The position numbers and the translations under genes are program-made. Shown here piece after piece: positions 17,051-47,164 of a stretch of DNA of 64,000 bases; position 1 is the first letter of the stretch, and each line of letters begins with the position of its first letter. Origin of the DNA: Eledone cirrhosa (Eukaryota); NCBI GenBank assembly GCA_964016885.1, contig OZ024761.1, positions 10,106,001 to 10,170,000 on the forward strand, in the 5' to 3' direction. Below the pieces are notes generated by a model. That model had not been told where the DNA came from, did not search any database, and worked only from the letters and a program-made list of their open reading frames with translations.

Positions 17051-17336
17051 TATGTATATATATATATATGTATATATATATATGTATGTATATATATATA
17101 TATATATATATATATATATATATATATATATATATATATATATATATATATATGTGTATTATATATATATATATATATATATATATATAATATATATATA
17201 TATATATATATAATATATATAAATGGCTTCTACAGGACTGTATTAAATATTTATATTCTGCTATGTATTGAGTACCTTACTTACTGGGGTTACCCCCGAT
17301 TGAACCCGGGATAAACATATATATATATATATATTT

Positions 17337-17551
17337 ATAATCGTTTCTACTATAGGCACAAGGCCAGTCATTTGGGGAGAGGGGGAAGTCGATTAAATGG
17401 ACCCCAGTGCATTACTGGTACTTTATTTTATCGACCCTGTAAGGATGAAAGGCAAAGTTAACCTCGGCAGGATTTGAACTCAGACCGTAAAGGGACGTAA
17501 GTCTATGCTGAAAAGCATGGCGTCCGAGCCTCTACTGATACTGCCAATCCA
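17337..17551 (-). mobile_element. SINE family S (long variant with GGGGAAGTCGATT insert)
   Basis: Reverse complement of the 6503-6692 element plus an extra ~30-nt block. Confidence 0.88.
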
Positions 17552-19689
17552 TGTGTGACGCGCGTTTCGCAATTTATCAGCTCAAGGTTCGATCTCTATC
17601 GATCGGACCCGACTCTGGAATCAAAAACTCAGACGCAATGACGGAATGATTCCCGTATAGAGTTTAAAATATATATATATGTATATATATATATATATAT
17701 TGTAATGAGTTACTGCCTGACGGTTGAGCTCTTGCCGTTTCGTCTGGCAGTAACTCATTACAATACCTACACATACATTCCTTTACTGGTTTAAGTCTTC
17801 AATTCTTATAGAAATATCAGGTTTGGGCGCAAGAGTTCCATTGCCTTCTTCGGTAGTCTCCTTCTGTTCCTGGGTAGTCTCCTCTTGTCTCTGAGTAGTA
17901 CCGTCAAGTCAATAGCGGCCATTTTTTAGTGGGATCTATGGTCTGGCACCTGTTAATTTGCCGTCCTTCCGTCTGTTGAGATATACATAAACCCCTCTCT
18001 CTCTCTCTCTATGCCCATATAAAGATAAAGAATTGAACGGCCCAAAACAAACTCCAAGCCGTTCGACTATGATGCGATTCATCTAATCACCAGCATCATC
18101 ATCACCTTTATTGCCATCACCATTCAACTTATGTTTCTTCTCTCTCTCTTTCTCTATCATCCACAATCAAGTAAGTACATACACTTACAAACACAGGAAG
18201 ACAGGCATATTAAAACAACACACACACACACGCACGCACACACACACACACACACACACAAAACCAGTGCACACACACTCAGGAAGAGATAGATTCATCA
18301 GACACGTGAACGTCTGCTTCAATGAAATTCAATAAGAAATTGTCGGCCATTTTGGTTTCTTCATCATCAAGCAAGCTCCAGAGTTTGTCGTTTCTTCCTG
18401 ACTGCTGCTGTTACTGCTACTACTGTTGTTATTGTTGTTGCTGTTGCTTCTCTTGTTGTTGTAGTTGTTGTTGTTGTAGCCACTGCTGCTGCTGCCTGAC
18501 ATGCCTTACTGCTGCTATAAAAAGAAACTTACTGAGTTAGGTCGCTGACAGATGATATAAAAATAAGCGAATAATAAGCACACACACACACACACACACA
18601 CACTCACACTCACACTCACACACACACTCACTCACACACTCTCTCTCTCACACATACATAATAGTTTCAGAGATATATTTGCCACACACAAACAGACACA
18701 CACACATACACATGTATGTACGTACGTGTAGTGTTATATTTCTCACTCATATACAATATGCATGAGTGTATGCGTGTGTTACATATCATACATATAATTA
18801 CATTTTTACACGTATACATATATAATACATATTACACATATATAATACATATTATTACATTTATTTTTATGCCTTTTTAATATTATTATTTTACTGCTAA
18901 ATATAATAACATCATCATTTCGTAAATGTCTGATGTCGCTAACATATATATTTCTATCGCCTCCTCATTTTATCTCTTCCTCTCTCTCCGCCTCCTCCTC
19001 CTCTCTCACTCCCCAATTCTTCCCCTCTGTTTCCCTCTCTCTCTCTCTCTCTCACTCTCTCTCCTTTCCTTTTTCCTTTTTCAATAATACCTTCTTTTTT
19101 CACACAGCGCAGCATCTTCCTACTCTTTTAAAAAGGTTTAAAAGATAAAAGAGAGGGGAAAAAATAAAACAAACTAAAAAGTATCAGCAAATAAATAAAT
19201 AAATAGATAAAAATAAACACCTTTTTTTATTTCTCTCAGTTCTGCTTGTTTGCTGTACAGAGGCCATCATGTTTTTACACATCTATCTATCTATCTATCT
19301 ATCTATCTATAACTATCTGTCAATATATTTATCTATCAGTCTGTCTATCTACCCATCAATCGTTCGATCGATCTGTTTATCTGTCTATTTATCTATCTGT
19401 TTATTATCACTTGATCAAAGAAATTTTATATATATATATATATTCCGCCTGTTCACCACTTTATCATGCCATAGACAGACATAAGTATAGAAAGAGGTAC
19501 ACCTACATATTTATGAATGTGTGGGTGTAATGTAATACCACCCCCATGTACAAAATTGCATTGCCCAAGGGTGGCTGATGAGGAAGAGAGGTGCTTTTAT
19601 TCGTTCATCGCACGTATTTCGTTTTTTCGTACAACTTTGCTACACGCACACACATACATATGTATGTGTGTGTGTGTGTGTATATATAT

Positions 19690-45920: not shown

Positions 45921-46193
45921 GCAGTACTAATCGCTTCTTCAAAATGTTAAAACATTTTTCTTTTTCTAATTAAAATAAACCAATCCAATTTCTAGTAGGA
46001 AAGAAATAATCTTTAGAAGGAAGGAAAGTTCCAGAAAACATAAAGAAATAAAAACAAATATTTTCAAATGAATATAAAAATTATTGGACAGAAATCTTAT
46101 TTTAATATCAATACATACACACGTGTGTGTGTATGTATTGATATATATATATATATATATAAATATATATATATATATAAATATATATATATA

Positions 46194-46269
46194 TATTGGG
46201 TCGTCAAGTATGACATTTGTAGAAAAAAAAAAAAAAATGTTTACAAATTTCATACTTGACGACCCAATA
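46194..46269. mobile_element. Tiny Tc1/mariner-type MITE (TIRs only)
   Basis: TA-TTGGGTCGTCAAGTATGA.ATTTGTA..TACAAATTTCATACTTGACGACCCAA-TA. Confidence 0.75.
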
Positions 46270-47164
46270 TATACAGAAAGAGAGATATACATACATGACA
46301 TAAAAGTATTCATGATATGTGTATATATATGCATCGAGTACTCCCATGATTAGTGGTCTCCTCGGTCTTAGCACCGCAGACTCTATATATACATATATGT
46401 ATATATATATGTATATATATATATATATATATATATATATATATATATATATATATAGTAATAATAATAAATTTGAAGAGAGAGAGAGGGATAGAGATAG
46501 ATGTGTATATATATATACACACACACATATATATACAAATATGTGTGTGTGTGTGTGTATACACACACACAGATGCATGTATACATACATACTGAAGTAA
46601 AAACAAAAAAACACAATTTGAAACTGGAAACGAATAGGTTGGCCTCCGTGTTATAAAATTTGACGTAGAATAATTTTAAATTCTCATTTGGGCTATAAAT
46701 AAACAGATATTCAATAGATTATTCAGTCCACGACGATAGATGAACTCGTACTGCGAGATTTTTATCGATTTCCGGAAGTGAGTGAGAAATGAGAAGTGAA
46801 AAATATCGTGTGGGTGGTGAGGGAGACGGGTGAGTATACATTTGTGTGTGTGTGTGTGTGTGTGTAATGGTGAATTGGAGAATGGAAAAGCAAAGAGATT
46901 TGTTTGAATGAGATTATAAATGAAACGAATCTAATTCCATTGAATGAAATCTTAACAAATTCCATAAGAGCACCCCACGTCCCTTCTCTCTCCCTTCACA
47001 CACATCGTCAGAATCGGCCGCCTACCTTTAGTTTTATTTTCACACACACACACAAATATATATATATATATACACATATATGTAAACATATATATTTATA
47101 TATTTTTTTATTGAAAGCTGTGTAATATCAGTCAGTCAAGTAATTTAGCCAAAAATTTCCATTC

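Follow-up and report, generated by a model that had tools for sequence, protein, structure and literature searches.

A conserved bulged hairpin at the insertion ends of probable Hydra-clade Penelope-like elements in a genomic window of Eledone cirrhosa

Motif sites and elements of the window

The window analysed here is a 64,000-nucleotide (nt) stretch of microsatellite-rich animal DNA from Eledone cirrhosa (assembly GCA_964016885.1, contig OZ024761.1, positions 10,106,001 to 10,170,000). It contains insertions between (TA)n runs, among them hammerhead-bearing elements identified below as probable members of the Hydra clade of Penelope-like elements (PLEs). An earlier note on this DNA had described a short motif, GTATTGAGTAC, downstream of otherwise dissimilar hammerheads. 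The reading favoured here, considered probable but well short of certain, is that the motif is one half of a conserved hairpin of Hydra-clade PLEs, which positions an internal start of reverse transcription.

Exact copies of GTATTGAGTAC were found at 17265 (+), 25499 (-), 37408 (+) and 43931 (+), in agreement with the positions and strands given earlier; shuffled sequences contained 0.15 copies on average, and none of 100 shuffles reached four. With one mismatch allowed the count was still 4 against 3.2 expected, which leaves the exact copies, seen in their context, as the basis of the signal. The variants reported near 26078, 38048 (-) and 46331 were located at 26077 (+), 38049-38059 (-) and 46331 (+). 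The heptamer CTC(T/C)ACT, said usually to precede the motif, does so at five of these seven sites; 17265 has TTCTGCT instead, and 46331 is truncated by (TA)n. A nearby (TA)n junction, likewise claimed, follows 42-71 nt past the motif at six of the seven, the exception being 43931, which continues into other sequence; with the two further copies described below, a TA junction lies behind seven of nine sites.

The claim of an upstream hammerhead held in part. The ribozyme is intact at 26077 and 38048, with its cleavage site 58 nt upstream, and its 3' half is kept at 25499 and 43931; 37408 has a doubtful remnant, and none was seen at 17265 and 46331, where both inserts are 5'-truncated. GAAA[C/T] occurs 43-64 nt upstream of six of seven evaluable window hairpins against a background of 9.2%, in a range that was set post hoc and with two sites belonging to the same family. 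The observation as a whole was thus partly confirmed. The flanks of the first seven sites (30 nt upstream, 40 nt downstream) are unalignable between sites (z<2.5), except that 26077 and 38048 align as members of one family and 17265 and 37408 align downstream only. Self-BLAST among the motif sites connects only the copies of that family, here called family A.

Four copies of family A have an intact type I hammerhead. One is an inverted arm at 25716-25825 (-; core 25817, cleavage 25768), which has a short end about 6 nt ahead of the hairpin start position. The second carries its hammerhead at 25952-26017 (+; core 25960, cleavage 26009) and the hairpin at 26067-26087 (+), followed by a tail to about 26152 and then by (TA)n, which is the long end. 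A further long copy at 37982-38185 (-) has its core at 38177, cleavage site at 38128, hairpin at 38070-38049 and long end at 37982, and a short copy at 43319-43426 (+; core 43327) joins (TA)n 6-7 nt ahead of the hairpin position.

The remaining sites belong to other families. The 93-nt insert at 17225-17317, which is 5'-truncated and has (TA)n runs on both sides, carries a hairpin with two G.U pairs at 17255-17275 (+) and a long-type end 42 nt later. The hairpin at 25499-25524 (-) has a 4-bp upper stem and (TA)n 46 nt on; behind it the 3' half of a type I hammerhead (GAAAC, stem III and GUC site) was recognised by eye at 25550-25594 (-), its core lost by 5' truncation and its GAAAY lying 43 nt upstream of the hairpin. 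At 37397-37418 (+) the doubtful remnant is GAAAT, 48 nt upstream, and (TA)n follows 49 nt on. The hairpin at 43920-43941 (+) is preceded by a hammerhead 3' half at 43868-43886 (+), whose stem III and cleavage-site layout is, by eye, that listed for Hydra-2_Amil and Hydra-2_Ajap in the available File S2 of PMC8557442, and by an inverted arm of the same family at 43762-43824 (-) with a short end about 10 nt ahead of the hairpin position. No (TA)n lies behind this hairpin, and no second hairpin was found; the sequence enters tandem repeats of about 105 nt. At 46331-46341 (+) only the 3' arm is present, a TA run replacing the 5' arm, and (TA)n follows 42 nt on.

The two further copies are a hairpin at 62273-62295 (-) with a G-C bottom pair and a UA bulge, in the form seen at the 5' end of Hydra-1_Ajap, and one at 63205-63228 (+) with a UC bulge and a 4-bp upper stem. 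The former lies in the left arm of a fold-back insert, the right arm of which (62367-62465, +) has a Hydra-type hammerhead core at 62373, recognised by eye, and a short end about 6 nt ahead of the hairpin position. The latter lies in an insert between TA runs (63083-63291) with no hammerhead seen. No tandem array of hammerhead-bearing monomers was seen at the motif sites.

Some minor features adjoin these elements. The tandem repeats directly behind the 43931 hairpin are about 4.5 diverged copies of a 105-nt unit (43955-44427). At 43100-43430 there is a chimeric fold-back in which another hammerhead family (cores 43217, - and 43236, +) is fused directly to the short family A copy, which suggests template switching between families; its minus arm has a possible decayed hairpin near 43130-43150. 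The family A tail contains a second stable stem-loop (26110-26140 and 38000-38030), and a sister subfamily found in reads has an altered loop with the stem kept.

Structure and covariation of the hairpin

The motif supplies the 3' arm of a hairpin with a bulge, and the two halves given in the earlier note base-pair together; this pairing had been overlooked, together with the copies at 62273 and 63205. The hairpin is 21-29 nt long and consists of a lower stem RYUC/GAGY, a two-base bulge starting with U, an upper stem of 2-7 bp and a free loop, with the consensus RYUC-Y(n)-loop-(n)R-U(U/C/A)-GAGY-RC-UYU and a UA box 5-12 nt upstream. The window holds eight whole hairpins and one half. A descriptor search, with a descriptor shaped on these same window sites, returned the eight whole copies against 0.74 in 100 local shuffles (maximum 3). 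Among 109 distinct control hits picked for a 3' arm and a TA run, drawn from a metagenome scan (at least 116 loci, chance matches) and seven viral loci, the 5' arm was present by sequence in none and by pairing in two.

Covariation was evaluated on 23 of 26 distinct hairpins, eight from the window and 15 from G001 and G002, two public assemblies evidently containing animal DNA; three near-duplicates or long-stem variants were omitted. In this set 98.7% of cells are paired, compared with 81.7% after shuffling, and there are 30 double changes, compared with 8.6. None of 500 shuffles equalled the observed pairing or double-change count, and slid controls gave 15-55%. RNAalifold produced the same structure with the same seven pairs. 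Selection of the hairpins demanded the lower stem and the first upper pair, leaving the second and third upper pairs free; these were paired in 24 and 22 of the 26 hairpins, against 13.2 and 12.1 in shuffles. The bulge is UU in 17, UC in 5 and UA in 4 hairpins, and 24 of the 26 have U at +1, 23 at +3. The arms are about 8 to 19 nt apart, and what the upper stem conserves is pairing rather than sequence. These results support a structure that is paired as RNA, or at least as a single strand, and not a linear motif.

A covariance model built from the first six sites found 62273 at E=2.8 only and missed 63205, which therefore were not blind recoveries by that model; a second model was trained with both included. 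Its extra window match at 3347 (E=0.08) was dropped, having no hammerhead context. Pairing of the GAGUA arm with hammerhead stem III, or its use as a second cleavage site, was rejected because most families have GAGC and dissimilar stem III sequences. No Rfam match reached the gathering score among the best 150 of 401 matches for the window and three focused scans.

Position of the hairpin relative to insertion ends

The two arms of each of the three fold-back inserts in the window are unequal, one short and one longer, and a tail is present at one end only. About 6-10 nt ahead of the hairpin position, one arm passes into repeat of TA or CA type; the other arm carries the hairpin. Short ends were found in four window copies of three families, all four at a TA junction. 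In G001, 18 distinct short copies of eight families change to TA-type repeat 6-12 nt before the hairpin; the anchor used to collect them was blind to ends more than 16 nt upstream, and a set chosen by protein had none of these in families with a known hairpin. All 26 hairpins have a TA between -12 and -5, whereas 8-nt windows that lie entirely upstream of -10 contain one in 7-17 of the 26. A signal of the LINE type (long interspersed nuclear element) would always be copied; this hairpin is not, since the short copies stop ahead of it.

Alignment of family A (37982-38288) to four runs gave 28,676 reads of X10, 7,300 contigs of X1, 58 matches in X5, which is another organism, and one in X6. In the best-supported rows, loose TA ends lie at 38073, 38082 and 38087, or 3, 12 and 17 nt before the hairpin. 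Depth on the 5' side of the hairpin is several times that of the tail, a difference for which a sister family is partly responsible. Among the hairpin variants listed are a change of the bottom pair to A-U, a change of the second bulge base from U to C, and changes in the loop. Two further changes, at similar frequencies (54 and 44% in X1, 66 and 57% in X5) that do not by themselves show linkage between them, would jointly turn a C.C mismatch into A-U.

A second hairpin in full-length elements

The short-end rule, together with the two hairpins of Hydra-1_Ajap, led to the expectation that long ends lie before a second hairpin (H2), in the same way as short ends lie before the first (H1). A full-length copy on contig C716 of G001 (L345), spanning positions 2630 to 73 (about 2.56 kb, under 3 kb), has at its 5' end (TA)n, H1, 33 nt, 8 nt beginning TATA, H2, 19 nt and ATG. 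Its 3' end consists of the hammerhead, H1, the same 33 nt as on the 5' side and (TA)n. L284 and L285 agree with this layout. In G001:C3, H2 and then the start of the open reading frame (ORF) follow 5-7 nt beyond the long-end sequence, and G002:C364 has the order ORF, hammerhead, H1, 41 nt, H2, 19 nt, ATG. The distance from H2 to ATG is 19 nt in both L285 and L286. Of four ORF 5' regions found, one is truncated and the three intact ones all have the hairpin; the long copies stop 5-8 nt ahead of H2.

Intact elements carry both H1 and H2 before the ATG, and H1 sits behind the hammerhead of the pseudo-long terminal repeat (pLTR), at the start of the 5' leader of the next unit. The distance from a hairpin to each of the two ends is fixed. 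The motif sites of the window probably represent H1 copies in long-ended, 5'-truncated insertions, a point that shares the moderate confidence given to the favoured reading as a whole.

Distribution of the hairpin

The available supplement of PMC8557442 provides six Hydra-clade consensus sequences. By eye, the hairpin was recognised behind the hammerhead in Hydra-2_Amil, from a coral, and in Hydra-2_Ajap, from a sea cucumber, and twice ahead of the ATG in Hydra-1_Ajap.

A scan of genome contigs with three requirements and no others (TA run, lower stem, one bulge base) returned 39 loci: 16 in G001, one in G002, three in G003 and 19 chance-like matches in other records. Among 20 distinct matches in G001 and G002, GAAAY lies 43-72 nt upstream in 18, a CUGANGA core is present in 13 and an upper stem of at least 3 bp in 17, none of these features having been part of the scan criteria. 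Viral control rows had a hammerhead in 0 of 32 and an upper stem of at least 3 bp in 3 of 32, and the viral matches look like chance. The ORFs upstream of the scan hairpins bear the Hydra marks RWK, DKT and CxCX5C, the last being the linker motif of a clade whose C-terminal GIY-YIG lacks CCHH, and in the G001 and G002 loci such motifs stand directly upstream of hammerhead and hairpin. L147 has RWK and DKT; L149 has YRDD, CxCX5C and a weak Pfam GIY-YIG match (E 3e-4, below the cut-off) and, on its minus strand, an ORF resembling Hydra-2_Amil by eye.

Loci were also chosen by protein only, from the best 29 of 33 and the best 30 of 53 matches; those reaching the C-terminus were scored, and one row in each set was dropped for a flank shorter than 50 nt. 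The hairpin was found behind 9 of 21 Hydra-type endonucleases and 0 of 20 other PLE endonucleases (Fisher p=0.0013), on rows that are not independent, since several copies come from one family, the nine positives representing about eight families. Eight of the remaining Hydra-type rows end in repeat just before the hairpin of their own family, and one has a template switch inside the hairpin. For the other endonucleases the hairpin was absent within 900 nt or up to the repeat junction, with hammerheads present in 16 of the 20. A PLE-wide distribution was thus not found, the 20 Neptune-like endonuclease-containing (EN+) copies having no hairpin. Within this sample the hairpin is restricted to Hydra-clade PLEs, and all carriers appear to be one clade.

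Matches in G003 (L137, L142 and L162) were left out of the hairpin set, having no upper stem in register; neither a Hydra-type endonuclease nor a covariance model match was found in G003. These loci belong to a repeat flanked by TA, in which GAAAT lies 61 nt upstream of a segment that resembles the hairpin but in a different register. G001, G002 and G003 (L139-L174, L225-L283) are filed as bacterial genomes and include large amounts of animal DNA, in which Penelope-like and other retroelements occur; in G001, Hydra- and Neptune-like copies are densely nested in shared TA runs. At L274-L280 (G001:C448 and C653), PLE-like ORFs of the GIY-YIG type are repeated in tandem, and every one has two TGA codons in frame, in the same places; these ORFs could be selenocysteine-recoding Naiads like those in the available text of PMC8557442.

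In the window itself, minimal hammerhead families at 34949, 37169 and 23437 have no hairpin. Hammerhead-bearing PLE-like families without it occupy 27635-27860, 34833-35190, 36938-37200 and 23340-23624; two have short and long ends of their own, with tails of about 30 nt and 150 nt, and such families may use other positioning signals. A fold-back element at 24085-25200, with Hydra-like hammerheads at 24448 (-) and 24989 (+) and arms sharing one end point, has no hairpin passing the descriptor and shows a look-alike with a four-base bulge behind the cleavage site.

Proposed mechanism and alternative explanations

Since copies end a few bases ahead of the hairpin, the hairpin is suggested to mark the start of reverse transcription. 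The reverse transcriptase (RT)-endonuclease protein would bind the hairpin on a tandem transcript and nick (TA)n DNA; the nicked end would pair with the UA box, where complementary DNA (cDNA) synthesis would begin, leaving the adjacent hairpin uncopied. A start at H1 would produce a short end, and a start at H2 a long end whose extra 'tail' includes H1, so that two tandem hairpins would account for the PLE tail. In vitro, the RT of a Poseidon PLE initiates internally, at two sites that delimit the tail, and depends on RNA about 55 nt further 3', according to the available text of PMC11167929, behaviour that fits the proposed mechanism. A conserved RT or endonuclease cis-signal had been among the functions put forward in the earlier note; the end positions and the restriction to one clade speak for it, in the form of a structure and not of a linear motif.

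A wider version of this proposal is tentative, and is judged somewhat less likely than not to be right in full. The hairpin and UA box would together be a portable RT start signal: attached 3' of an arbitrary RNA, it would direct the Hydra-clade protein to copy that RNA into (TA)n DNA from a defined internal base, with the signal itself left uncopied; the tandem pair would fully explain the PLE tail, and the hairpin would be the PLE counterpart of the template-positioning stem of telomerase RNA.

Several observations weigh against the favoured reading. The mechanism is drawn from DNA sequence, from which function is inferred, and the data do not distinguish RNA from single-stranded DNA. Covariation on the first six sites alone is weak (19 of 500 shuffles), the folding energy is small (-1.3 to -8 kcal/mol, a weak hairpin), and the exact bulged fold is the minimum-energy structure in three of eight short window segments. 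Of the published Hydra consensus sequences as available, three of six pass the descriptor; Hydra-1_Crog and Hydra-1_Amil have variants only, and in the Hydra-1_Obim consensus no hairpin was found. A passing match in one Naiad 3' untranslated region (UTR) may be chance. Three of the 21 Hydra-type rows (L239 twice and L250) have neither the hairpin nor a known short end, and the dependence among these rows counts on the same side. The link of long ends to H2 rests on two families (C716 and C3), and the covariance model found no H2 in either window copy running past H1 (43931 and 62273). No ORF remnant of these elements was found in the window (tblastn, E<=1), so that the clade of the window elements is deduced from non-coding features, which make them probable Hydra-clade copies.

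The same positional data would be accounted for if the GIY-YIG endonuclease read the inverted repeat as DNA, duplex or extruded, and cut the TA 6-10 nt upstream, the ends arising by endonuclease resolution and by homing into the element's own copies. The tail is attributed to endonuclease resolution in the available text of PMC8557442, and that of PMC11167929 states that the D. virilis endonuclease required the tail for substrate recognition. However, tail ends coincide with RT start sites on RNA in the latter paper, and the variable arm spacing and pairing-only upper stem fit a folded strand better than a duplex. This explanation is regarded as unlikely. One that is hardly likely sees in the hairpin a stop or template-boundary element, before which an RT working on an antisense template, or on the second strand, halts by 6-10 nt; telomerase stops before its boundary stem. 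The fixed distance from end to hairpin agrees with this, and an antisense-template self-priming model exists for rotifer PLEs (PMC3846280, in its available part), whereas 3'-end priming has as its signature 5' truncation of variable extent together with constant 3' ends that meet (TA)n at a UA microhomology, and the in vitro data given in PMC11167929 favour a sense template.

The position of H2 19 nt ahead of the ATG in L285 and L286 invites the idea that the hairpin mainly controls expression, as an internal promoter or as a translational operator bound by the ORF protein, the ends coinciding with it for other reasons. Internal promoters near the boundary of pLTR and body are described for Penelope and Chlamys elements in the accessible part of PMC8557442, but a DNA promoter motif would conserve sequence rather than pairing, and the equally short distance of the ends from both hairpins would be left unexplained, as would the UA box; this alternative is distinctly unlikely. 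Most improbable is a splice signal, as the earlier note had also considered, or a neutral relic of shared descent. A CTAAC-like loop in two window families, the invariant GAG and the apparent single clade of the carriers speak for one or the other, but the loops vary freely and GT is not conserved, the position being GTA, CTG, ACA, TTG, GAG or CCA while pairing is kept. The possibility that all instances are diverged copies of one family stands in so far as the carriers seem to be one clade; the flanks cannot be aligned, conservation of the hairpin above the level of its flanks is already seen here, and the stems covary across several animal phyla, a combination that points to a hairpin under selection.

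Comparison with known systems

LINE RTs recognise 3' stem-loops, for example those of eel UnaL2 and of the R2 3' UTR. Like the present hairpin, these are small RNA folds that keep a constant distance to the priming site and recur in unlike families; they stand 5' of that site and are copied, whereas this hairpin lies 3' of the end that it appears to set and occurs twice. In telomerase RNA, with its template-positioning elements, and in hepatitis B virus (HBV) epsilon, an internal template is set by an adjacent RT-bound stem. The likeness to both is one of description, and neither repeat synthesis nor protein priming is implied here. PLE RTs are the sister group of telomerase reverse transcriptase (TERT), as stated in the available text of PMC8557442.

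The Hydra-clade PLEs of that paper (Craig et al. 2021), as far as available, agree with the present elements in (TA)n targets, a type I hammerhead in the pLTR, inverted 5'-truncated arms and a one-ended tail, and the hairpin occurs in its own consensus files (Hydra-2_Amil, Hydra-2_Ajap, and twice in Hydra-1_Ajap). The word 'hairpin' occurs 0 times in its main text, where neither this element nor a rule linking ends to it is described, and its tails are 30-40 bp long, against about 60-95 nt here. The AC-rich stem-loop of Poseidon_Ac (Frangieh et al. 2024, PMC11167929, available text) is similar with respect to two internal RT starts bounding the tail, a need for 3' RNA and AT-rich targets; it differs in that synthesis starts inside one stem-loop in the ORF and that no conserved binding motif was defined, the hairpin described here being conserved, non-coding and 3' of each end. 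Non-LTR retrozymes (PMC7229834; bioRxiv 10.64898/2026.07.22.740005) are likewise short, non-coding, PLE-derived and equipped with type I hammerheads, but form tandem monomer arrays, whereas the copies here are single or fold-back truncated; no such hairpin is described in the available parts of these papers.

PLEs, the Hydra clade, their hammerheads and tails and internal initiation are already known. The conserved cis-element is real and, it appears, undescribed: neither the hairpin nor the two-hairpin rule was found in the literature searched, which covered neither Repbase reports nor the subscription papers dealing with tail, promoter and endonuclease of Penelope, where relevant material may exist. 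Two questions about PLEs have long been waiting for an answer, namely how they choose their template and why their copies end at either of two 3' positions (the 'tail'), and the sole in vitro study, in its available text, reports internal initiation with no conserved signal (PMC11167929). A covarying structure of 21-29 nt, its fixed distance to both ends and the UA microhomology are all directly mutable. The hairpin is also a non-coding marker for ORF-less Hydra-clade copies, and a candidate handle for RNA-templated insertion that leaves no signal sequence in the product.

Other repeats of the window

A 5'-truncated LINE ORF of about 838 open codons at 19694-22211 (-), which we take to be RTE-like, matches RVT_1 (E=5e-33) and, weakly, an endonuclease; its 5' end abuts (TA)n. 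Three LINE 3'-end copies with a C-terminal C2H2 finger lie at 16650-17050, 26430-26828 and 62720-63072, and have a short stem-loop right before (TA)n, a signal distinct from the hairpin studied here. The sequence TCGAGTAC on the minus strand at 17028, 26806 and 63051, was excluded as the 3' end of another LINE-like family. A family of small inverted-repeat elements is found within TA runs at 30622-30900, 35660-35720 and 46196-46270.

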